DNA of 58,851 nucleotides, taken from contig WTAL01000163.1 in assembly GCA_013139635.1 (NCBI GenBank), positions 1-58,851 of the forward strand, in the 5' to 3' direction. The DNA comes from Paracoccaceae bacterium (GTDB taxonomy: Bacteria; Pseudomonadota; Alphaproteobacteria; Rhodobacterales; Rhodobacteraceae). Shown here piece after piece: positions 8,982-57,164 of the stretch (positions are counted from its first letter, which is position 1; every line of letters starts with the position of its first letter). Both the position numbers and the translations under genes were made by a program. Under the pieces are notes generated by a model, which was not told the origin of the DNA, made no database searches, and saw only the letters and a program-made list of their open reading frames with translations.

Positions 8982-9056
8982 GCGGGCGTAGCTCAGTGGT
9001 AGAGCACTTCGTTGCCAACGAAGATGTCGTGAGTTCGAATCTCATCGCCCGCTCCA
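8982..9056 (+). tRNA. tRNA-Gly (anticodon GCC)
   Basis: 75-nt cloverleaf folded by hand. Acceptor GCGGGCG/CGCCCGC, anticodon stem CTTCG/CGAAG with loop TTGCCAA, T-loop GTTCGAATC, encoded CCA. Confidence 0.95.
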
Positions 9057-21576: not shown

Positions 21577-22074
21577 ATGACAGACGAAGAGTTTTTGGCG
21601 CTGCCTTATCGGCCCAATGCGGGGCTAATGCTGCTAAATAGTGCCGGAAAAGTGTTTGTGGGCAAGCGGATAGACACAGATGGTGAAGCTTGGCAAATGC
21701 CACAAGGCGGCATTGATAAAGGCGAGGACGCCAAAGCGGCGGCTTTGCGGGAACTGGAGGAAGAGACCGGCATTCCAGCCCGTTTGGTTGATATTATCTC
21801 GGTAACGGATGACTGGATAAAATATGATTTTCCGCGCGAGTTGGCGGCCAAGCTCTGGGTGCGGCGCTCAGGTGAGCCGCGCTATCGTGGGCAAAAGCAA
21901 CGCTGGTTTTTAATGCGGTTTACGGGGCAGGAAAGCGACGTAAACATCGCGACAGCTCATCCCGAGTTTTCGGAGTGGAAGTGGATGGACCCAGCCGATT
22001 TGCCGGACTTCATTGTTCCGTTTAAACGGGAAATTTACCGACAGGTTCTTGAAGAATTTTCGGGCTGGATTTAG
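21577..22074 (+). CDS. rppH: RNA pyrophosphohydrolase (Nudix)
   Basis: [11 protein letters not shown]...[28 protein letters not shown] (Nudix box), GQKQRWFL, and synteny after ctpA. Confidence 0.9.
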
Positions 22075-22976
22075 CCGCGACTATCTAAAACACGTTGAAC
22101 CTGGCCCACCTGTGCTTTGGCAACAGGAATTTGTGTGCCGTTTTGTAAAGTGACAAAGTATCGCCCTGAGTTATTTTCAAGCGAAAGCATGGTGTTGTTC
22201 GCAACCCAGTGGGAGCGATGCACCCGAACGCCCGAATTTTCCGGCACAAGTTTTGTGGCGTCTGTCATAGACAGGCGCACCAAATGGGAGCCTTTTTCTG
22301 TGGTGATTTTTACATAATGGTCTTGCGCAGAAACCGCGATGAGCGGCCCGATTTTGTCTATCGGTAAATACTTTTGAATGGTTGGGCTTTGCTGCCTACT
22401 TTTATGCTTCCGAAAGCACATTACTTGGTGTGTTCTGGCATGAACGAAGGGCAGTGCTAGCGCATAAAACACAAAAATCTTCCAGAAAAGATCATCAAAA
22501 TACAGAATGCCACCAGTGTAAAAATAGTTGGGAATCGCGGGTTCAATGATGCTGAATATGATTGAGGACAGCACTACATTCACGGCCACAAGTGCCCAGA
22601 TACTGATTGAGAATATGAGATGAATCGGCACTAAAGCCAATAAAAGAACGTAAGGAATAGCGGCGGCCAATAGGGCTGCCAGCCCAATGACTACCGGCCG
22701 CCATGGGCCATAGTCAAACCCCGGCTCAGAAAAGGTGCCGGTTGCCAAAGATATGATCGTTAGGCCAAATATAATGGCATAAACATCGGTGTTATTACGG
22801 TGGATACGCAAGGTGATTTTTGCCGCGTCCCAAATGTCTTTTTTATCGAGGCGCTCTTTCTCTGCAATGCGTAGGAACACAGCCTCGAGGCTTACGATTG
22901 CATGGTCAAACGACGCTGCCTGCCAATTTTGGAAATTACCAAAACTGTGTTTTAGTGAGGTCAGAAATTGTTGCAA
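22071..22976 (-). CDS. membrane-fused LytTR DNA-binding protein
   Basis: N-terminal part with about 4 TM helices. C-terminal LytTR domain ([34 protein letters not shown]...[10 protein letters not shown]). The start is uncertain (TTG at 22976, no early ATG). AT-rich. Confidence 0.72.
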
Positions 22977-33952: not shown

Positions 33953-34978
33953 CTAGTTTGATAAGTGTTGGTTAACAATTCCAAACCACTCACCCGAAAT
34001 CAGAATTTCTTTCAAGCCTGCGTTTGCCATTTTCAAGACCTCAATCGCCGCTGGATTTTGGCTATAGGCAACCGCGTGAAGCGTGGTTATTTGGGCAAAT
34101 GCCGGAATATCCGTTAATTGGCTATCAGGCGAAACGATGGATCCAAAACTTTGATAATCCGCTAGCATCGCGTCGTAATTACCGGTTTCCAGCCCTGCGA
34201 GGCAGCTTCGGAAATCTGGGGAGAGCACAATGGTGGCGCTGGTTTCCGCAATGCCGTTTTGGCCCAATAAATCTGCCGTATGGAATTGAGGAACACAAAT
34301 TGTTTTGCCCGCAAAGCTGCGCGCGGTTTGTGCGGTTGCAAGTGGGCTATCGGCAGGTGTGAAAATCCCGAGCGTTATCTCATAAAGCGGGTTGGAGAAT
34401 GTGTAATTGTTACACATGTAAATCGACTGAGGCGAGAGCGAAGCGGCATCACCACAATCAGGCATTGTCCAAGGGAAGGAAAGCAGCGCATTGGGCTCTA
34501 TCGAAATCTGCAAAACGTCCGAAATACCATTTGGGCGCGCAATACTCAGCGAGTCCTGATACCCTCCGGCGCGCAATGCGGCGCCAAGAATGTCAGGGAT
34601 AATGCCTGAACTATCATGGTTGATAAACGGGGTTTCGCCGGCTTTAGCCAAAAACCGCGGTTCAACAGTTTGCGTGGCTTCAGGCACCGGGCTGACCAGC
34701 GCCAGAAAGGCAGTAGGTTGAGGAATTTGTATATTCTCCCGACAGGGAATCGATAATTCCATACCAATTTCGATAGAATTCGGATTTTCGCCGATCGTGC
34801 TCGCGTTGGCTTCAAAAAGAATAGGCGAATACTCGCGCGAGCCATAGTATCGCTCTGAGATCAACCTTAAGGTGTCTCCTGGGACAACCGAATACGTATC
34901 ACAAAAGTCAGAGGCTTTGGCTGCACTGCTTGCAGCTACCAACGCACTAAGACCATAGAAAACCATAGCTTTTAACAT
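33953..34978 (-). CDS. secreted LysM-domain protein with a solute-binding-protein-like C-terminal region
   Basis: Signal peptide. LysM motif (YSVVPGDTLRLISERYYGSREYSPILFEAN...IEIGMELSIP). The remainder resembles a periplasmic binding fold. Lower GC than the flanks. Confidence 0.65.
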   Translation of the reverse strand: MLKAMVFYGLSALVAASSAAKASDFCDTYSVVPGDTLRLISERYYGSREYSPILFEANASTIGENPNSIEIGMELSIPCRENIQIPQPTAFLALVSPVPEATQTVEPRFLAKAGETPFINHDSSGIIPDILGAALRAGGYQDSLSIARPNGISDVLQISIEPNALLSFPWTMPDCGDAASLSPQSIYMCNNYTFSNPLYEITLGIFTPADSPLATAQTARSFAGKTICVPQFHTADLLGQNGIAETSATIVLSPDFRSCLAGLETGNYDAMLADYQSFGSIVSPDSQLTDIPAFAQITTLHAVAYSQNPAAIEVLKMANAGLKEILISGEWFGIVNQHLSN

Positions 34979-35040: not shown

Positions 35041-35505
35041 TCATGAATTGTTAACGATTGCGCGTAGGTTAACGCCAGCAGCATCTGTGACCGTGACGTG
35101 CTGGCCTTCTTCCGGCGCGTGGGTCTCCCAGGTTGTGGGCCACTGAACGCCGTCAATTTCCACCTTACCTTGCGAGCCGCTTACGCTCAGCACCTTGGCC
35201 TCGCGCCCGATCAGGCTTTTGCCACGGGCGTTTAGTGTCGTTTGCGGCTCATCTTGCTCAACCCGCGCCATCAGCGCGCGGCCACCAAAGAGCAGCGCGA
35301 TTGAAAGCGCGGCAAATATTGCGATCAGCGCTTGCCCCGAAAATCCGGGGGCGAGCCACGCCAGTACCGCCATGCCTACCGCGGCAAGGCCGGGCCAGAT
35401 CATAATAAAGCTGGGCGCGAGGATCTCCACCGCGATCAGCATTATGCCAAGTGCCAGCCACAACCACGGGCTGGCCTCAGAGACCCAAATGAAAAACTCA
35501 GCCAT
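35041..35505 (-). CDS. NfeD-family membrane protein
   Basis: 154 aa with 3-4 TM helices, then a C-terminal OB-like domain (GREAKVLSVSGSQGKVEIDGVQWP). It directly abuts the SPFH gene with no gap. Confidence 0.8.
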   Translation of the reverse strand: MAEFFIWVSEASPWLWLALGIMLIAVEILAPSFIMIWPGLAAVGMAVLAWLAPGFSGQALIAIFAALSIALLFGGRALMARVEQDEPQTTLNARGKSLIGREAKVLSVSGSQGKVEIDGVQWPTTWETHAPEEGQHVTVTDAAGVNLRAIVNNS

Positions 35506-36447
35506 CTATTTGTCCTTTCCGGTAACCGCCTTGGCGATATCGGCAATGCCGGCAATAGAGCCAAGCAGGCCGGTGGCCTCCAGCGGAATCATCACGGTTT
35601 TGCTGTTTGGCGAGCCCGCAATATCGCGCAAAGCTTCGGTGTATTTATTGGCCACAAAGTAGTTGATCGCCTGAATGTCACCCTCGGCAATCGCTTTAGA
35701 AACCATCTCTGTCGCCCGCGCTTCGGCCTCAGCCGAACGCTCCCGCGCCTCCGCATCGCGAAACGCCGCTTCCTTACGGCCCTCGGCCTCCAGAATTTGC
35801 GATTCCCGCTCGCCCTCGGCCATCAGAATGGCAGATTGCTTGCTACCTTCGGCTTGCAAAATATCAGCCCGCTTGGTCCGCTCGGCCTTCATCTGCCGCG
35901 CCATCGCTTCGTTAATGTCTGGCGGTGGCGCAAGGTCTTTGATCTCTACGCGCGTAACTTTTACGCCCCAGCTATGGGAGGCTTCATCAATCACGCTGAG
36001 CAGGCGGTGGTTAATGCTATCACGGTTGGAGAGGCTTTCATCAAGGTCCATCGAGCCGATCACGGCACGAATATTGGTCATCGAAAGGTTACGCAAAGCC
36101 CGCTCAAGGTCGCGCACCTCATAAGAGGCCTGCGCGGCATCTACCACTTGGTAAAACGCAATCGCGTCGGCCACCACCATCACGTTGTCTTTGGTAATCA
36201 CTTCTTGCGAGTGAATATCCAGCACGGTTTCCATCATGTTCACTTTAGCGCCCACTTTATCAACGATCGGCACCAAAAAGCGCAAGCCCGGTGAGAGCGT
36301 GCGGGTATATCGCCCAAAGCGCTCCACCGTCCATTCCTCGCCCTGTGGAATGGTTTTTACCGTCATCCAAATAAGGATAATCGCGAATACCAAGAGCGCT
36401 ATGGCCGGTGCGCCAGTGGTTGTTAGCAGGTCTACAAGCTCGTTCAT
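35506..36447 (-). CDS. SPFH/band-7 (stomatin-like) protein
   Basis: N-terminal TM helix. SPFH core (VERFGRYTRTLSPGLRFLVPIVDK...TKDNVMVVADAIAFYQV...). C-terminal AEAEA-rich coiled coil. Confidence 0.92.
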   Translation of the reverse strand: MNELVDLLTTTGAPAIALLVFAIILIWMTVKTIPQGEEWTVERFGRYTRTLSPGLRFLVPIVDKVGAKVNMMETVLDIHSQEVITKDNVMVVADAIAFYQVVDAAQASYEVRDLERALRNLSMTNIRAVIGSMDLDESLSNRDSINHRLLSVIDEASHSWGVKVTRVEIKDLAPPPDINEAMARQMKAERTKRADILQAEGSKQSAILMAEGERESQILEAEGRKEAAFRDAEARERSAEAEARATEMVSKAIAEGDIQAINYFVANKYTEALRDIAGSPNSKTVMIPLEATGLLGSIAGIADIAKAVTGKDK

Positions 36448-36615
36448 AACGACTCCAAAAGTTGTAAAATATCAATTCGTGTGCACAACATATAGGCATG
36501 TTCACGCTCAAATTGAAGGGTTTTTCCCACTTGCTTTGTGTTATTCACTGGCTAAATGTCAAATTGAGTGCTGTAATGCGCTATTGTTATGCGTGTTCAG
36601 GAGCAAAGACGCTGT

Positions 36616-37797
36616 ATGAAACTAGAGATCGACTTTAAGCACGAGCCATCCTTTACCAGACCAACCCGACAAGCCATGATCATGCTGATCATTTTGGTTT
36701 TGGTGGCCATTGGCGGGGTCGCGATGTTCCCGTCTATGTCGGACGTATTTCTGGTGTCCCCGTGGCTAAACGGGGTTATTATCGCGGTGTTTGTCATCGG
36801 CGTGATGGCCTGTTTTTACCAAATCCTCACGCTTTTGGTCGCCGTGCGCTGGATCAAAGGCTTTGTGATGGATATCCCGGGCCACGAATTTGTGCGCTCT
36901 CCCCGCATTCTTGCCACGCTAGAAGCGCTATTGCGTGATAGCCGCGCCCGCAAATCGCTCACCTCCACCTCTAGCCGCTCTATTCTTGATTCGGTTGGCA
37001 CAAGGCTAGATGAGCTGCGCGATATCACCCGCTATATTGCTAGCCTGCTGATTTTCCTCGGCCTGCTCGGCACGTTTTATGGCTTGGCCACCACCGTGCC
37101 AGCTGTGGTTGACACCATTAAAAGCCTTGCGCCGCAAGAGGGGCAATCGGCGTCTGAGACCTTCAAAAACCTGATGAACGGGCTGGAAGACCAGCTCGGC
37201 GGCATGGGCACGGCCTTTGCGTCGTCGCTTTTGGGCCTCGCTGGCTCGTTGGTGGTGGGCTTGCTTGAGCTTTTTGCTTCCCACGGGCAAAACCGGTTTT
37301 ATATGGAACTGGAGGAATGGCTGTCCTCGATCACCACGCTGAGCTTGGTGGGGGACGGCGAAGGCGGGGCAGGGGGCACTGATCTTTCGGCGCTTTATGG
37401 CTTCATGGAGCAAACCGCGATGCAGATCGAAACGCTCAAGGATGTTACCTTGCGCGGCGAGGAATCCCGCCAGAAAACGGATGCGTCACTCGGCCAGCTG
37501 GCCACGGCGGTGAGCGCCATGGCCAGTAATACGGGCGGGGCAGGGATTGACGAAGAGGTGTTTGAGCGCATCGCCGCCTCGCAGTCAGAAATGACGCGAA
37601 TTTTGCGCGACCGCGAAGAAAGCGCGGGCCTGCTGGATAGCGAAGCCCGCTCGCGCCTGCGCAATATTGATGTGCAGCTTTTGCGGGTGCTGGAGGAAAT
37701 GTCGGCTGGCAGGCAAGAAAGCATTGCTGATCTGCGCGCAGACCTTGCGCAACTGGCGCAAAGCATTTTGGCGCTGGCCAACACGCGGGGCAGCTAA
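36616..37797 (+). CDS. MotA/ExbB/TolQ-like channel subunit with a C-terminal helical tail
   Basis: Two N-terminal TM helices, a cytoplasmic insert, then LIFLGLLGTFYGL...GGMGTAFASSLLGLAGSLVVGLLELF (MotA_ExbB-type TM pair) and a tail of about 150 aa. The alternative start is ATG 36589. Confidence 0.65.
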   Translation: MKLEIDFKHEPSFTRPTRQAMIMLIILVLVAIGGVAMFPSMSDVFLVSPWLNGVIIAVFVIGVMACFYQILTLLVAVRWIKGFVMDIPGHEFVRSPRILATLEALLRDSRARKSLTSTSSRSILDSVGTRLDELRDITRYIASLLIFLGLLGTFYGLATTVPAVVDTIKSLAPQEGQSASETFKNLMNGLEDQLGGMGTAFASSLLGLAGSLVVGLLELFASHGQNRFYMELEEWLSSITTLSLVGDGEGGAGGTDLSALYGFMEQTAMQIETLKDVTLRGEESRQKTDASLGQLATAVSAMASNTGGAGIDEEVFERIAASQSEMTRILRDREESAGLLDSEARSRLRNIDVQLLRVLEEMSAGRQESIADLRADLAQLAQSILALANTRGS

Positions 37798-39816
37798 ATG
37801 GCCCTCGGTCGGCGCGGCAGTGGGCGAGACGCCCCCAATATTTGGCCCGGATTTGTGGACGCCATGACGGCGCTTTTGCTGGTGCTGTTTTTCGTGATTT
37901 CCATTTTTATGATCGTGCAGTTTGTGCTGTCTGATACCGTTGATAAGCAAGACGAAGAACTGAGCTCGCTCTCCGAGCAGGTGGCGGGGTTAGCGGATGC
38001 TTTGGGGCTGGAGCAATCCCGCGGGCGGGCGCTGAACACTGAACTCGGGGAGCTAAATAGTGCCTTGAGTGAGGCCGAAAACCAGAGCAATGCGCAATCA
38101 GCCTTGATAGCGACCTTGACGCAGCAGCGCGATAGCCTGCAAACGCAAGCCAGTGAAAGCGCAGGGCGGATTACCGATTTTGAAGCGCAAATCGCAGCGC
38201 TGCTTTTGCAAAACCAATCGCTTGAAGGTACTGTGGCCGCAACGCAGGCCAGCCTGGATGCCGAGGCTGAGGCCGCGCGGCTGGCAGCGGCCCGCACCGA
38301 GGCGTTGCGGGCAATGATCGCGGACCTTGAAACCGCGCAATCCGGCAATGCCGCGCAGGTTTCGCAAATGCAGGCGCAAATCGAGAACGCAACGCAGGCG
38401 CTGTTTCTGGCCGAGGCCGCCAAGCGCGCCGCCCAGATTTCGGCCTCAGAACGCTCTGGTGAAATTACTCGGCTACGCCAGGAGCGCGATTCGGCACAAG
38501 CCCAGCTCGCCAGCCTGCGCGGAGAGCTGGATACTGCTACCACCGCCCTTGGGGATAACCGAGAGTTGGCCTTGCAGGAGGCGGTGGCGTTACGCGCCCA
38601 AATCGCGGCGCTCACCGAAGCCCGCCGCACGCTAAGCGAAGACCTGAATTTGGAGCAACTGGCGCGCATTGCTGTGCTCAAACAGCTTTCTGATGCCCAA
38701 GGCGCGCTGGATAATAGCGCTGAAAGCACCGCGCAAACCGAGGCCGAGCGCCTACGGCTAGAGGCATTATTAGCCGATAGCGAAAACCAGATCACCGCCG
38801 CGGAACTGGCGCTTGCCGAGCGCGCCGCCGCGCTGTCAGACGCCGAAAAAGGCCAGCTCGCCGAAGCCGCTGCCGCAGAGGCCCTACGCGCCCGCATGGC
38901 CAATGCCGATGCCGAGCTCACGGCCATGACACTCCAGCTGGAAGCCGAGCGCCAGCGCGCGCAAGATACGCTCACGCAATTGGCCGCACTCAGGGCGGCC
39001 CAGCGTGAGCTATCGGGCCAAGACCGGCAAAACCTTGAGGTGATCACTAGCCAGCAAGCGGCTCTGCAAGAGGCTGAGCGGTTGCTGGCAGGCGAAGAAT
39101 CCCGTTCGCTTGAAGCCCAGCGGCAAGTTGAGTTGCTAAACCAGCAGACAGCCGCTCTGCGCCAAGAGCTAAACCAGCTGCAAGGGTTGCTGGATGCGTC
39201 TTCGCTCGCCGATAGCGAAGCGCAAATAAGAATTGAGACGCTCGGCTCTGACCTCAACACAGCACTGGCCCGCGTGGCCGCCGAAGAGCGCGCCCGCGCC
39301 GATGCAGAAAGCCGCGAAAATGAACTTTTGGCGGCTGAGGCCGTGCGGCTGGAAGCCGAGGCCAATGATCTGCGCTCGTTCCGCTCCGAATTTTTCGGGC
39401 GCATGCGTGAAGTGCTGGGCGGGCGCGATGAATTGCAAGTGGTGGGGGACCGCTTTGTGTTTTCATCTGAAGTTTTATTCGAGCCAGGATCGGCAACGTT
39501 GGGCTTTGAGGGCCAGCAACAACTCTCTGATTTGGCAGGCGTAATTCGTGAGCTCGAAGGTGAAATCCCCCCCGAGATTAACTGGATATTACAGGTAGAA
39601 GGCCACACAGACGCGACAGGCAACGCCGCCAGCAACTGGGCACTTTCCCAAGCGCGCGCTCTGTCTGTGGTGACTTATTTGATTGATGTCGAGCGCCTCA
39701 CGCCCGCGCACCTGTCGGCCGCCGGCTTTGGCGAGTTTCAACCCATCGCCGAGGGGGACAGCCCGCAAGCTTTAGCGGCTAACCGGCGCATCGAGCTAAA
39801 ACTGACCGAGCGGTAA
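37798..39816 (+). CDS. MotB-like protein: TM plug, long coiled coil and OmpA-type peptidoglycan-binding domain
   Basis: The N-terminus IWPGFVDAMTALLLVLFF is a MotB-type TM helix with a conserved Asp. About 450 aa are A/L/E/Q-rich. The C-terminus has VEGHTDATGNAASNWALSQARALSVVTYL...ANRRIELKL. The ATG follows the upstream TAA directly. Confidence 0.8.
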   Translation: MALGRRGSGRDAPNIWPGFVDAMTALLLVLFFVISIFMIVQFVLSDTVDKQDEELSSLSEQVAGLADALGLEQSRGRALNTELGELNSALSEAENQSNAQSALIATLTQQRDSLQTQASESAGRITDFEAQIAALLLQNQSLEGTVAATQASLDAEAEAARLAAARTEALRAMIADLETAQSGNAAQVSQMQAQIENATQALFLAEAAKRAAQISASERSGEITRLRQERDSAQAQLASLRGELDTATTALGDNRELALQEAVALRAQIAALTEARRTLSEDLNLEQLARIAVLKQLSDAQGALDNSAESTAQTEAERLRLEALLADSENQITAAELALAERAAALSDAEKGQLAEAAAAEALRARMANADAELTAMTLQLEAERQRAQDTLTQLAALRAAQRELSGQDRQNLEVITSQQAALQEAERLLAGEESRSLEAQRQVELLNQQTAALRQELNQLQGLLDASSLADSEAQIRIETLGSDLNTALARVAAEERARADAESRENELLAAEAVRLEAEANDLRSFRSEFFGRMREVLGGRDELQVVGDRFVFSSEVLFEPGSATLGFEGQQQLSDLAGVIRELEGEIPPEINWILQVEGHTDATGNAASNWALSQARALSVVTYLIDVERLTPAHLSAAGFGEFQPIAEGDSPQALAANRRIELKLTER

Positions 39817-42334: not shown

Positions 42335-42617
42335 GATGCCTCCTAACCCGAATAATAAAATGCAACTGCGCGTACCGCAGCCTAATGCTTATCCTTTAAT
42401 TTCGGGTTTATTTCCCGAGCTTCAAGGGAAAAGCGCTCAAATGAGCTAAATAATCCGTGATCGGGCGGTTTGGCTGCGTCATAACTACCATAAGTAGCAC
42501 GGACGACTGGGGATGCACCTTTAATTGCACTCACATGATTATGCAGGCTTTATTGATGCAGCGCATATTCTGTGGTTTTATATGCCTGTAAACGTCAAAA
42601 ATACGACCGCGCTAAAA

Positions 42618-43733
42618 ATGGAGCCGCCAATGGCTGATATGCACCCGCTTGCAGGGCTAAAAATTGTTGAGTTCGCCGGCATTGGCCCCGCGCCCTATGC
42701 GGGCCAGCTTTTGGCTGATCTCGGGGCTGATGTGGTGGTCATTGATCGCCCCAAACGCGGCGAAATTGGCTTGGCGCAAAGCCCTGATCGGCGGGGCAAG
42801 CGCTCTATCGTGATTAACCTGAAAACCGAGGCGGGCAGGGCGGTGGCTGAGAAGCTGGCCCAATGGGCCGATGTGCTGATTGAGGGCAACCGCCCGGGTG
42901 TGATGGAGCGGCTAGGGCTGGGGCCAGCGCCGCTGATGGCCGCAAACCCCGCACTGGTGTATGCGCGCATGACAGGCTGGGGACAAACCGGCCCGATGGC
43001 CATGCAGGCGGGGCATGATATCAATTACCTGTCTCTGACTGGCGCTTTGCAGGCCATGGGCGATGCAGACCGCCCGCCGCCCCCGCCGCTTAACCTTGTA
43101 GGTGATTTTGGCGGCGGCTCGATGTTTCTCATCATGGGGATTCTTTCCGCGCTTTATGCGGCCCGCAGCACGGGCAAAGGGCAGGTGGTAGATGCCGCGA
43201 TTGTGGATGGCGTGAACTCCATGATGGGCATGTTTCACGGCCTCCACGCCGCGGGCGGCTGGACGCCGGAGCGGCAGAGCAACTGGCTGGATAGCGGTGT
43301 GCCATACTACCGTTGCTACGGCAGCAAGGATGGGCGCTTTGTGGCAGTGGGCGCGATTGAAGCGAAGTTTCATGCGGAGATGCTTTCTCGGCTTGGCGTG
43401 CCGCCTGAAAGCTATGGCGCGCAGCATGATAAGCATTTGCACGCCGCGCAAATGGCGCAGCTGGAAGCCGTGTTTGCCACGAAAACTATGGCTGAATGGG
43501 CTGAGGTCTTTGCGGGGAGTGACGCCTGCGTAACCCCCGTGCTCACCTATGAAGAGGCGGCGGATGACCCGCATATGGCGGCGCGCACGGCGTTAACGCA
43601 GGTAAAAGGCACCCGCCAGCCAGCGGTTGCCCCACGCATGGGTGCGGCAATTCCGTTGCCCACGGAAATGCCCGAAGATGGGGCCGATACAAACGAAATT
43701 CTTGAAATGCTGGGCGCTGAAGGGCAGGCTTGA
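42618..43733 (+). CDS. family III CoA-transferase (CaiB/BaiF, alpha-methylacyl-CoA racemase-like)
   Basis: PLAGLKIVEFAGIGPAPYAGQLLADLGADVVVIDRP, LIEGNRPGVMERLGLGP and GHDINYL. The start is chosen among ATG 42618, 42630 and 42639. Confidence 0.87.
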   Translation: MEPPMADMHPLAGLKIVEFAGIGPAPYAGQLLADLGADVVVIDRPKRGEIGLAQSPDRRGKRSIVINLKTEAGRAVAEKLAQWADVLIEGNRPGVMERLGLGPAPLMAANPALVYARMTGWGQTGPMAMQAGHDINYLSLTGALQAMGDADRPPPPPLNLVGDFGGGSMFLIMGILSALYAARSTGKGQVVDAAIVDGVNSMMGMFHGLHAAGGWTPERQSNWLDSGVPYYRCYGSKDGRFVAVGAIEAKFHAEMLSRLGVPPESYGAQHDKHLHAAQMAQLEAVFATKTMAEWAEVFAGSDACVTPVLTYEEAADDPHMAARTALTQVKGTRQPAVAPRMGAAIPLPTEMPEDGADTNEILEMLGAEGQA

Positions 43734-43734
43734 T

Positions 43735-44919
43735 ATGGCACTAAAAGAGCAGGGCATCGCCATTATTGGCGCGGGGATTGGCGGGCTGGCGGTGGCCACA
43801 GCGCTGGCCCAAAAAGGCGCGCGGGTGCGGGTTTTTGAGCAGGCCGACGGGCTGGGTGAAGTGGGCGCAGGCTTGCAGATAAGCCCTAACGGCGTGGCCG
43901 TGCTGGACGCGCTGGGGCTTCGAGATGCCGCCGCCAAGCTGGCCAACACCCCCGAGGCCGTGGTGCTGCGCGATTATCGCGGAGCCGAGGTGGTGCGCCT
44001 GCCCATGGGGGCCAGCGCTGAGATGCGCTATGGCAAGCCCTACTGGCAGTTTCATCGGGCTGATTTGCTGGGTGTGCTGGCCGAGGGCGCGCGGAATGCA
44101 GGGGTAGAGCTGGTGTTTGGCCATCGGCTTGCCGAAGTTTCACAGAAAAACGCCCGCGTTTCGGCGCGCTTTGGCAATGAGAGCACTGCCGAGGCCGATT
44201 GCCTGATCGGGGCCGACGGCGTGCGCTCTGTAGTGCGGGGCCTCGCCCTGCAAGGCCGCCCCGCCGAATTTACCGGGCAAGTGGCGTGGCGCGGGCTGGT
44301 GCCTAGCGACCGCCTGCCAAAAGGGCTATTTGAAAACGCAGCACAGGTGTTTATGGGCAAAGGGCGGCACCTTGTGGTCTATCCTTTGCGCGGCGGCACG
44401 CTGATCAATTTTGTGGCGGTGGAGGAGCGCGCGGGCTGGGCCGATGAGGGCTGGAGCCTTCCAGACTCGCCCGAAAACCTGCGCGCCGCGTTTCAAGGCT
44501 TCGCCCCGCCCGTGCAGGCGCTTTTGGCGCAGGTCGATGAGACCTTCCTTTGGGGCCTGTTTAACCATCCGGTGCTGCCGAACTGGTCGAATGGCCGTAT
44601 TGGCCTTGTGGGTGATGCCTGCCACCCCATGCTGCCTTTCCTCGCGCAAGGGGCTGTAATGGGGCTGGAAGATGCGTTTGTGCTAGCCGAAGCACTGGAG
44701 GTTAACGGCATTGAAAAGGGCTTTCAGGCCTATGAAGCCACCCGCAAAGCGCGCGCCACCCGCGTGCAAAAAGGGGCGGCGCGCAATGCGTGGTCTTACC
44801 ACCTGCGCAACCCCCTACTGCGCGGGGCGGCACACAAGTTGTTAGGGATGGCACCACAGAACACCTTGCTGGGGCAGTTTGATTACCTGTATGGTCATGA
44901 CGTGACGGATAAGAACTAG
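43735..44919 (+). CDS. FAD-dependent aromatic monooxygenase (salicylate hydroxylase-like)
   Basis: IAIIGAGIGGLAVATALAQKGARVRVFEQ (the dinucleotide fold) and LVGDACHPMLPFLAQGAVMGLEDA. The ATG lies 1 nt after the upstream TGA. Confidence 0.87.
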   Translation: MALKEQGIAIIGAGIGGLAVATALAQKGARVRVFEQADGLGEVGAGLQISPNGVAVLDALGLRDAAAKLANTPEAVVLRDYRGAEVVRLPMGASAEMRYGKPYWQFHRADLLGVLAEGARNAGVELVFGHRLAEVSQKNARVSARFGNESTAEADCLIGADGVRSVVRGLALQGRPAEFTGQVAWRGLVPSDRLPKGLFENAAQVFMGKGRHLVVYPLRGGTLINFVAVEERAGWADEGWSLPDSPENLRAAFQGFAPPVQALLAQVDETFLWGLFNHPVLPNWSNGRIGLVGDACHPMLPFLAQGAVMGLEDAFVLAEALEVNGIEKGFQAYEATRKARATRVQKGAARNAWSYHLRNPLLRGAAHKLLGMAPQNTLLGQFDYLYGHDVTDKN

Positions 44920-57087: not shown

Positions 57088-57164
57088 TGGTCGGGCTAGC
57101 GAGATTCGAACTCACGGCCTTTCGTCCCCCAGACGAACGCGCTACCAAGCTGCGCCATAGCCCG
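57088..57164 (-). tRNA. tRNA-Pro (anticodon GGG)
   Basis: The reverse complement folds by hand. Acceptor CGGGCTA/TAGCCCG, D arm GCGC-agcttggta-GCGC, anticodon stem TTCGT/ACGAA with loop CTGGGGG, T-loop TTCGAAT, encoded CCA. Confidence 0.93.

Follow-up and report, generated by a model that had tools for sequence, protein, structure and literature searches.

To our knowledge, 5:2 motors, the ion-driven membrane machines in which five A-type subunits are combined with two B-type subunits, have few known uses: they rotate flagella, drive gliding and type 9 secretion, energize Ton uptake, and act in the Tol–Pal system, SiiAB and Zorya. Two of these, SiiA–SiiB of Salmonella SPI-4 (tied to type 1 secretion) and GldL–GldM (tied to type 9 secretion and gliding), are non-flagellar MotAB-like motors, and GldM illustrates that a B-type dimer can carry a long periplasmic extension, which in that case is made of globular domains and lacks an OmpA tip. 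In solved ZorAB and MotAB complexes, five A subunits surround two B helices, the aspartate of B packs on a ring of Ser/Thr residues, and a dimeric peptidoglycan (PG)-binding domain provides the anchor while A rotates around B upon ion flow (PMC11946911, PMC11890865).

Here we examine two adjacent genes, A and B, in a 58,851-nt stretch of DNA (the window) from a Paracoccaceae bacterium (assembly GCA_013139635.1, contig WTAL01000163.1). An initial annotation, made from this sequence without database searches, had read the pair as an ion-driven 5:2 motor resembling ZorAB with its long filament on B, and our analysis supports that reading. A and B are probably the two subunits of a 5:2-type membrane motor of the ZorAB/ExbBD/MotAB superfamily, which forms a stand-alone, vertically inherited housekeeping module; on our best reading the pair is neither a flagellar stator, nor a Ton/Tol energizer, nor a Zorya defence system. 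Three features distinguish the variant: A has an extra N-terminal transmembrane (TM) helix and a short tail that is broken into segments and ends in a conserved Arg-rich stretch, and B has a long stalk. No relationship in sequence to SiiAB or GldLM was detected in our searches.

Architecture of the two subunits

The two open reading frames (ORFs) abut exactly as the initial annotation described, the stop codon TAA of gene A (37795–37797) being followed directly by the ATG of gene B at 37798 (junction AGC TAA ATG GCC), and every peptide motif quoted for the two genes was found. Translation of gene A most likely starts at the ATG at 36616 rather than at the start of the mechanical 402-amino-acid (aa) ORF, because homologues are ~393 aa long, begin at MKLEIDF and align from residue 10 of that ORF, because an AGGAG Shine–Dalgarno sequence is present 12 nt upstream, and because among the nearest relatives (13 upstream regions aligned) the upstream ATG is replaced by ACG (TTACGCG) while CAGGAGC...ATGAAA is kept. 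Residue numbers for A refer to the resulting 393-aa protein. The motif TTGAAGGGTTTTT, which is also kept in these relatives, may be a promoter element of the pair; it was not picked out by consensus promoter and terminator scans, which did not rise usefully above shuffled expectation.

Profiles and predicted structure agree in supporting membership of A in the MotA/ExbB/TolQ/ZorA superfamily, in line with the initial assignment of gene A to the MotA/ExbB/TolQ type, and A is closest to ZorA. The Pfam MotA_ExbB model scores the window protein below threshold (16 bits versus 22.9) and matches 36 of 61 diverse relatives (best E = 5e-6), whereas the PADLOC ZorA1 profile PDLC00597 matches the window protein at E = 1e-13 over residues 135–384 and all 61 relatives, 57 of which are also matched by ZorA3 models. 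The sole NCBIfam match of A was ZorA_4, whose curated cut-off of 500 bits was failed with a score of 20.9, and no MotA model was among the NCBIfam profiles matched. An early AlphaFold run with 38 close homologues gave a predicted local distance difference test (pLDDT) score of 53 and no significant Foldseek matches. An AlphaFold2 (AF2) model built on a 96-sequence alignment that spans alpha-, beta- and gammaproteobacterial members had a pLDDT of 81, a predicted TM-score of 0.63 and values of 82–98 in the membrane core. All of the top 47 Foldseek matches of this model in the PDB were ExbB, TolQ or ZorA chains, with probabilities mostly of 0.96–1.0 and target-normalized TM-scores of up to 0.54–0.56 over ~215–225 columns, and the best of them were ExbB and TolQ.

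Helix positions and charge indicate an N-in topology for A: TM1 and TM2 are linked to TM3 by ~60 aa of basic sequence in the cytoplasm, TM3 is linked to TM4 by ~35 aa of acidic sequence in the periplasm, and TM4 runs on as a long helix into the cytoplasm, followed by a four-helix tail with Gly-rich breaks. The length of this tail, put at about 150 aa by the initial annotation, was revised to ~170 aa. Continuation of long helices from the membrane into the cytoplasm is shared with ExbB and TolQ, which differ in having three rather than four TM helices and in lacking the long C-terminal tail. The first-TM region of ZorA (8vvn_C) aligns to TM2 of A, and the three-TM layout of ZorA and ExbB contains no equivalent of TM1. 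The channel core, formed by TM3 and TM4, aligns with the same region of ZorA 8vvn_C and with the TolQ motif GLFGTVWG (GLLGT-x-x-G in A). Within it, the residues invariant across all 96 sequences are L148, G149, L150, L151, G152, T153, F154, G156, L157 and T160 of TM3, M197, F201, S204, L205, G207, L208, G210, L212 and G215 of TM4, and Q225, N226, F228 and E233 just past TM4; T199 and S203 are kept in 38 Rhodobacterales sequences but are not invariant in the wider alignment. T153, T160 and S204 align with the GTF and TS positions of ZorA and by analogy would be placed around the aspartate of B.

Outside the channel, the last ~50 residues of the tail of A are also conserved (D-x3-R-x-RLRNID...LEE...GR...LR). 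A cluster R-x-R-x-R / RLRNID lies at 37645–37680 (residues 344–355), with R345, R347, R349 and N350 conserved or invariant in close relatives. This Arg-rich surface could be a candidate site for an anionic ligand or a partner. Longer homologues of A (485–614 aa) carry no extra Pfam domain.

Gene B was described initially as a MotB-type TM helix bearing an acidic residue, joined to an OmpA/MotB domain, and both elements were recovered. Of 67 Rhodobacterales orthologues, essentially all preserve the TM motif NIWPGFVDAMTALLLV, across which one of them has a run of ambiguous bases, and Asp21 (in WPGFVDA) is present wherever the N-terminus of these orthologues is readable. It is also present in six distant orthologues, from Thauera, three other beta- or gammaproteobacterial genomes, Sinorhizobium meliloti and Komagataeibacter, where the motif takes the form WP[GA][FY]VDA. 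The TM region aligns weakly to ZorB (8vvn_B), and B matches the PADLOC ZorB1 and ZorB3 profiles (E = 1e-16); a W-x-x-F-x-D-x-M TM motif combined with an OmpA-like PG-binding domain is a likeness to ZorB. At the C-terminus, Pfam OmpA (PF00691) covers residues 560–663 (E = 2e-16), the canonical GHTD, N-x2-LS-x2-RA and NRRIE motifs are present, and the best PDB relatives are the MotB PG-binding domains 6ysf and 8ucs (E = 4e-14); Pfam finds no ExbD/TolR domain. With 553 bits, B exceeds the cut-off of 388 of a curated NCBIfam equivalog, NF006542 (PRK09039.1-1, named ‘peptidoglycan-binding protein’), and it fails all flagellar MotB, MotS and MotD models, which score 50–64 bits against cut-offs of 264–301 on the OmpA domain only. 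Profile searches thus assigned the pair to no characterized Tol, Exb or Mot paralogue, PRK09039 being the only NCBIfam family to claim it, and the AF2 model of A retained an ExbB/TolQ/ZorA-type fold; these were the two points on which the initial reading could have failed.

Between its two ends, B is a coiled coil. The initial annotation had noted roughly 450 residues of heptad-like sequence; the coiled coil itself was borne out by comparison with shuffled sequences, and its length proved to be 483 aa. The segment consists of 21% Ala, 15% Leu, 12% Glu and 10% Gln and lies within a proline-free stretch of 545 residues (none between residues 17 and 563), and its strongest Fourier periods, 2.33 (7/3) and 3.5 (7/2) residues, are heptad harmonics. 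The heptad signal is far more than chance: there is one register switch compared with a mean of 9.2 in 200 composition-preserving shuffles, and 52% of 28-residue windows pass the threshold for occupancy of the a and d positions compared with 19% in shuffles. The first register begins inside the TM helix, with which it is continuous, and extends to residue ~267; the second runs from there to ~506. If it formed a continuous two-stranded rod, the coil would be ~72 nm long. No internal repeats were detected in B at the DNA or protein level, which argues against a recent origin of the long coil by tandem expansion. A 613-aa antisense ORF (37794–39635, minus strand) passes through almost all of gene B; it has a Ser/Ala/Arg/Cys-rich translation and looks like a by-product of GC-rich Ala/Leu/Glu/Gln codon usage in the coil rather than a gene.

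Table 1. Features of the A–B pair and other annotated elements, in window coordinates
Feature	Position	Strand	Details
Gene A, mechanical ORF	36589..37797	+	402 aa
Gene A	36616..37797	+	393-aa ZorA/ExbB/TolQ-type motor subunit (probable)
Gene B	37798..39816	+	672-aa ZorB/MotB-like subunit; NCBIfam PRK09039.1-1 member
Shine–Dalgarno sequence AGGAG	36599..36603	+	12 nt before ATG 36616; kept as CAGGAGC in close relatives
TTGAAGGGTTTTT motif (candidate promoter element)	36513..36525	+	divergent intergenic region; kept in nearest relatives (13 upstream regions aligned)
A, N-terminal helical hairpin, TM1 + TM2	36664..36867	+	residues 17–84; AF2 helices 17–47 and 49–84, pLDDT 88–98
A, channel core, TM3 + TM4	36964..37350	+	long helices 117–170 and 179–245; AF2, alignments
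A, cytoplasmic helical tail	37279..37794	+	residues 222–393; AF2 helices 257–305, 313–337, 342–363 and 367–392, pLDDT 60–74
B, basic cytoplasmic N-terminus + single TM helix	37798..37932	+	residues 1–45; Asp21 codon 37858–37860, motif IWPGFVDAMTALLLV
B, periplasmic coiled coil	37933..39381	+	residues 46–528 (483 aa); heptad and Fourier analysis, shuffle control
B, OmpA/MotB-type PG-binding domain + N-terminal extension	39382..39813	+	RSEFFGR...VGDRFVFSSEVLF ... GHTD ... SNWALSQARA ... NRRIELKLTER
NfeD (154 aa) + SPFH/Band 7 stomatin-like (313 aa) pair	35041–36447	-	directly upstream of, and divergent from, gene A
tRNA-Gly(GCC)	8982–9056	+	RNA gene/Rfam search
tRNA-Pro(GGG)	57088–57164	-	RNA gene/Rfam search

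Distribution and inheritance of the family

The A–B pair is not peculiar to this window and belongs to a very widespread, vertically inherited family. Three homologue searches, the first of them with A in a 5.8-billion-protein collection, each matched at least 8000 clusters at the 90%-identity level, and in a library of 50%-identity representatives the number of matching clusters was 2152 at a threshold of E <= 1e-3, 1196 at 1e-10 and 383 at 1e-30. In the second search, which used a diverse alignment, the matches listed were again all Rhodobacterales; the third, seeded with a distant 349-aa member, gave a beta/gamma branch that leads to Rhodocyclaceae (Thauera, Nitrogeniibacter) and to gammaproteobacterial metagenome-assembled genomes (MAGs). 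When a single genome per species was scanned, 400 encoding stretches were confirmed, the best 80 of which (49–93% identity) were analysed; by title these are nearly all Rhodobacterales, Rhodobacteraceae or Paracoccaceae, with a few labelled only Alphaproteobacteria or Pseudomonadota and one Halieaceae MAG. Co-occurrence across the Alphaproteobacteria, a check proposed with the initial annotation, was evident: B follows A in all 77 Rhodobacterales loci with enough flanking sequence, as well as in S. meliloti and on a Komagataeibacter-like contig. Among the best 80 loci, ChaC lies upstream in 65, a convergent ClpA downstream in 52, and an NfeD–SPFH pair between ChaC and A in 40, giving the conserved Rhodobacterales order DUF2125–ChaC–(NfeD–SPFH)–A–B–ClpA. 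The identity of A correlates with that of ClpA (Spearman 0.70, p = 1e-7).

The order of the two genes persists beyond the Rhodobacterales in other surroundings. A (335–367 aa) is followed immediately by a 368–381-aa OmpA protein in five of five beta- and gammaproteobacterial genomes, with unrelated housekeeping genes as neighbours. In S. meliloti, the pair (A 368 aa; B 342 aa, annotated ‘peptidoglycan -binding protein’) has an inositol monophosphatase gene on one side and an ABC transporter gene, with rpmE after it, on the other, and the flagellar motA is 2.4 Mb away on the same replicon. The B proteins of these lineages also pass curated PRK09039 models (S. meliloti, PRK09039.1-3, 692 versus 362 bits; Thauera, PRK09039.1-2, 410 versus 305 bits). 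No genuine plasmid record was found in a plasmid collection, the five matches being rhizobial replicons of 3.5–4.6 Mb, and a phage collection gave only weak matches to the family (27% identity). One S. meliloti record, CP090106.1, is titled ‘plasmid pSymB’ although its 3.7 Mb include purE, rpmE and the flagellar motA. We therefore conclude that A–B is probably a stand-alone housekeeping module that belongs to the core genome in many proteobacteria.

The stalk of B varies in length between lineages. Its coil measures 150 aa in S. meliloti, 178–192 aa in the beta- and gammaproteobacterial genomes, and ~320 to 906 aa in the Rhodobacterales, where B is 515–1100 aa long (median 656). An extended stalk would span 22 to ~135 nm across the family, most lineages having 150–190 aa (22–28 nm), which is about the width of the periplasm. 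The window B is homologous to the short forms over residues 1–165/197 and 371/421–672, so that the coil is conserved at its two ends and lineage-specific in between, which indicates that the extra length of the Rhodobacterales coil was inserted mid-coil. The 480-aa coil is thus a Rhodobacterales expansion of an ancestral coil of 150–190 aa.

One member of the family has been studied under another name. The non-flagellated cellulose producer Komagataeibacter hansenii has genes called motA and motB that encode proteins of 348 and 321 aa, the former with four predicted TM helices and the latter with one TM helix and an OmpA domain (PMC6570709), and the cloning primers encode the termini VTRPTTY.../...TNHSAS for motA and MARRSR.../...EFRLTDR for motB (supplement of PMC6570709). 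An exact match to the motA primer in a metagenome collection led to a Komagataeibacter-like contig with ORFs of 348 and 320 aa and exactly those termini. The window A is 35% identical to this MotA over its full length (E = 5e-44), and the window B matches this MotB at both ends (E = 2e-18 and E = 1e-51). The latter has a coil of ~150 aa and passes PRK09039.1-2 (480 versus 305 bits) and no flagellar MotB model. The matching termini, the homology and the PRK09039.1-2 assignment place the K. hansenii ‘MotAB’ in the A–B family, with which it shares gene order and terminal motifs; it differs from the window pair in the shorter A and B (348 and 320 aa) and in having been read as a motility pair. An inositol monophosphatase (SuhB-like) ORF, assigned by eye from a sequence motif, lies two genes upstream of the pair on this contig. 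In S. meliloti a SuhB-like gene immediately precedes the pair, a similarity that may reflect an older synteny in Alphaproteobacteria, unlike that of the Rhodobacterales.

The K. hansenii pair was studied only for cellulose, cell length and colony spreading (Jacek et al. 2018–2019; PMC6570709). Overexpression of either gene produced longer cells and chains with visible septa, a threefold increase in colony spreading and looser cellulose, and left Escherichia coli unaffected; C-terminal green fluorescent protein (GFP) fusions formed polar foci, which were bipolar in long cells (PMC6570709). Disruption gave denser cellulose (PMC7347698). The view that the pair is not a characterized system therefore held in one respect, as no paper was found in our literature search that treats it as a distinct motor class, and needed amending in another, as it had been studied incidentally in K. 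hansenii as MotA/MotB. The search found nothing relevant on PRK09039, and the pair is not mentioned in a paper on MotAB evolution (PMC12505986) or in one on force transducers (PMC12204202). The polar-growth Rgs proteins of S. meliloti were considered as relatives and rejected as unrelated.

Mechanism and rival readings

By analogy with the solved complexes, five A subunits would surround the two B TM helices, and protons or Na+ would pass via Asp21 of B and the Thr/Ser ring of A (T153, T160 and S204). The B dimer would extend from the membrane as a parallel two-stranded stalk with its tip bound to the cell wall, and ion flow would turn the A ring, together with its ~170-aa cytoplasmic tail, around the tethered dimer. 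The conserved Arg-rich end of the tail would be the likely output surface, acting on a partner encoded elsewhere.

Several observations weigh against this interpretation. The Foldseek E-values for A were modest (0.014–0.1), although the list of matches was exclusive. When a profile of the TM core of A was compared with PDB sequences, the best match was ZorA 8vvn_C on TM3–loop–TM4, at a non-significant E of 0.42, and full-length profile searches returned only coiled-coil noise from the tail; hhalign of A against single E. coli sequences was uninformative (TolQ 34%, MotA 7% probability). Stoichiometry, ion flow, rotation and wall binding are all carried over from related motors. A long, torsionally soft coil would be a poor reaction arm for a torque generator and fits uneasily with a simple anchored stator. 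There is no known partner for the A tail, and the gene neighbourhood gives no functional hint beyond the pair itself. Finally, the Komagataeibacter data derive from overexpression and from C-terminal GFP, which would be periplasmic for B, so that the polar foci could be aggregates; the phenotypes are accordingly weak hints to a role in the envelope, in division or at the poles.

The pair might instead be a Tol/Ton-like force transducer, in which B is a fused analogue of TolR, TolA and Pal, the stalk is twisted or pulled, the output is periplasmic, and the A tail is structural only. The ancestral stalk of 150–190 aa would, like domain II of TolA, be roughly periplasm-spanning, its register is continuous with the TM helix as expected of a shaft, both of its ends are conserved, and a long periplasmic helix with a PG tip resembles TolR, TolA domain II and Pal joined in one chain. 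Rotate-and-pull models exist for ExbBD–TonB (PMC9389320), descriptions of further motor-driven transducers whose helix bears an Asp are appearing (PMC12204202), and the chaining of Komagataeibacter cells resembles Tol–Pal defects. We nevertheless regard this reading as unlikely: the PG-binding tip is of the MotB type, which in MotB and ZorB is a fixed anchor rather than a moving part; B has an OmpA-type rather than an ExbD/TolR domain, and no TonB, TolA, TolB or Pal gene is a neighbour; stalk length varies about threefold within one order; and few regions outside the channel are as well conserved as the C-terminal end of the A tail, which argues for a cytoplasmic output. That the pair is a passive tether or periplasmic scaffold, which links the inner membrane to the wall or organizes the periplasm and in which ion conduction is vestigial or regulatory, is suggested by the very long, length-variable coil and by the lack of identifiable partner genes in the loci examined. 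It is likewise unlikely, given that Asp21 of B and G149, G152, T153, T160, S204 and the TM4 glycines of A are among the most conserved residues in alpha-, beta- and gammaproteobacterial members, a degree of conservation not expected of a vestigial channel.

Its likeness to Zorya (types I–III; 8qyd, 8vvn) raises the question of whether the pair is a minimal or ancestral anti-phage sensor with effectors elsewhere in the genome. Every A relative tested matches ZorA profiles, more closely than Pfam MotA_ExbB and with the region of resemblance extending over TM3–loop–TM4 and the start of the tail, B matches ZorB1 and ZorB3, a single ZorAB entry (8vvn) supplies the best PDB sequence match for the TM region of each subunit, and the two systems share an A-then-B gene order and probably a 5:2 architecture with a cytoplasmic helical A tail. 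Set against this, the A tail is 170 aa long compared with ~500 aa (70 nm) in ZorA, every truncation of which abolishes Zorya defence (PMC11946911), A has the extra N-terminal TM helix, and ZorB lacks the 150–900-aa periplasmic coil. The ZorA_4 score is far below its cut-off (20.9 versus 500 bits). By Pfam and existing annotation, no ZorC/D, ZorE or ZorF/G effector or defence gene is adjacent in the window or in seven non-Rhodobacterales loci, and the Rhodobacterales loci, which were searched with the flanking proteins of the window, retain its housekeeping synteny and showed no Zorya effector, flagellar, Tol or Ton gene with the pair; the initial statement that ZorC/D/E-like partners are absent thus stands for all loci examined. 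Core-genome synteny and vertical descent, with no genuine plasmid and only weak phage matches, are also unlike the patchy islands typical of defence systems, and we consider a sensor of this kind unlikely. An accessory flagellar stator, as implied by some NCBI annotations and the Komagataeibacter papers, is essentially excluded. The name ‘flagellar motor protein MotA’ is attached to A members in Hyphomicrobiaceae, Sphingomonadales and unclassified Alphaproteobacteria, the four TM helices of A and the Asp-bearing TM helix of B are as in MotAB and PomAB, the PG-binding domain is closest in sequence to that of MotB, and overexpression in Komagataeibacter increases colony spreading. However, no curated MotA or MotB model is passed, hhalign gave only 7% probability for E. 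coli MotA, the TM2–TM3 cytoplasmic loop, which in MotA holds the torque-generating domain, is only ~60 aa, and the coil of B starts directly at the membrane without the short plug and linker of MotB. Moreover, the pair is present in non-flagellated Komagataeibacter (PMC6570709), coexists with a true MotAB in S. meliloti, where motA is 2.4 Mb distant, and was beside flagellar genes in none of the loci examined.

Returning to the motor reading, the threefold variation in stalk length among Rhodobacterales with unchanged ends suggests a leash or tension element and argues against a ruler or a stiff shaft. We tentatively propose a fourth functional class of wall-anchored 5:2 motors: a core-genome relative of ZorAB in which the B dimer would be a 20–130 nm leash from motor to peptidoglycan, tension or torsion would gate or load the motor, and the A tail would report this to the cytoplasm; the family would then also be the housekeeping lineage that gave rise to the Zorya phage sensor. 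Tension in the leash would arise wherever the inner membrane leaves the wall, as at constricting septa, at poles or during osmotic shrinkage. Based on the elongated, chained cells and polar foci of Komagataeibacter and on the housekeeping distribution, our preferred physiological reading, held with low confidence, is that the motor couples or monitors the inner membrane versus the wall at poles and septa, with a Tol–Pal-like role in the envelope or in cell separation.

Genomic surroundings and significance

In the window, the genes around the pair encode DUF2125, ChaC, a protein of 341 aa without assignment, NfeD, SPFH, ClpA, a CoA-transferase and an FAD monooxygenase. The initial annotation had stated that no flagellar, Tol or Ton genes occur in the 58 kb. 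This was borne out as far as it was tested: a tblastn search of the window with E. coli TolQ/R/A/B and MotA/B gave nothing at E < 0.1, and these eight flanking genes and the seven further ones scanned are housekeeping genes. The divergent NfeD–SPFH pair was considered as a functional partner and rejected; it is present in 40 of 80 loci only while A–B persists, and is therefore probably not one. The 341-aa ORF (33953–34978, minus strand) resembles a signal peptide at its N-terminus, contains a LysM-like stretch, YSVVPGDTLRLISERYYG, gives no Pfam match at E <= 1e-5, and is syntenic in many related loci (25–82% identity).

Further from the pair, the CoA-transferase III ORF (42525–43733) and the FAD monooxygenase ORF (43627–44919), both on the plus strand, overlap by 107 nt; as the Rossmann motif of the monooxygenase (MALKEQGIAIIGAGIGG) lies ~37 codons in, translation of that enzyme probably begins near 43735, which would make the overlap an artefact. 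GC content dips to 0.48 in the 22–24 kb region, compared with 0.55–0.62 around it, coinciding with a 301-aa protein with a LytTR DNA-binding domain (22071–22976, minus strand) that is flanked by ordinary genes (S41 peptidase, NUDIX, DUF1285 and MoxR–DUF58). An Rfam scan of the 58.8-kb window found two tRNAs and no other RNA family.

Here we have placed the A–B pair in what is probably a further, very common 5:2 motor lineage with its own architecture, which occurs in alpha-, beta- and gammaproteobacteria including S. meliloti and is inconsistently annotated as ‘ExbB’, ‘MotA’ or ‘peptidoglycan-binding protein’. Experimental work on the family is limited to K. hansenii, where it was incidental and appeared under the misleading name MotA/MotB; the identity proposed here would correct the reading of the ‘motility genes’ used in bacterial cellulose engineering. 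The pair would provide a tractable, non-essential-looking system for the study of a wall-tethered rotary motor without a flagellum or defence effectors, and the family may show the origin of the Zorya sensor.

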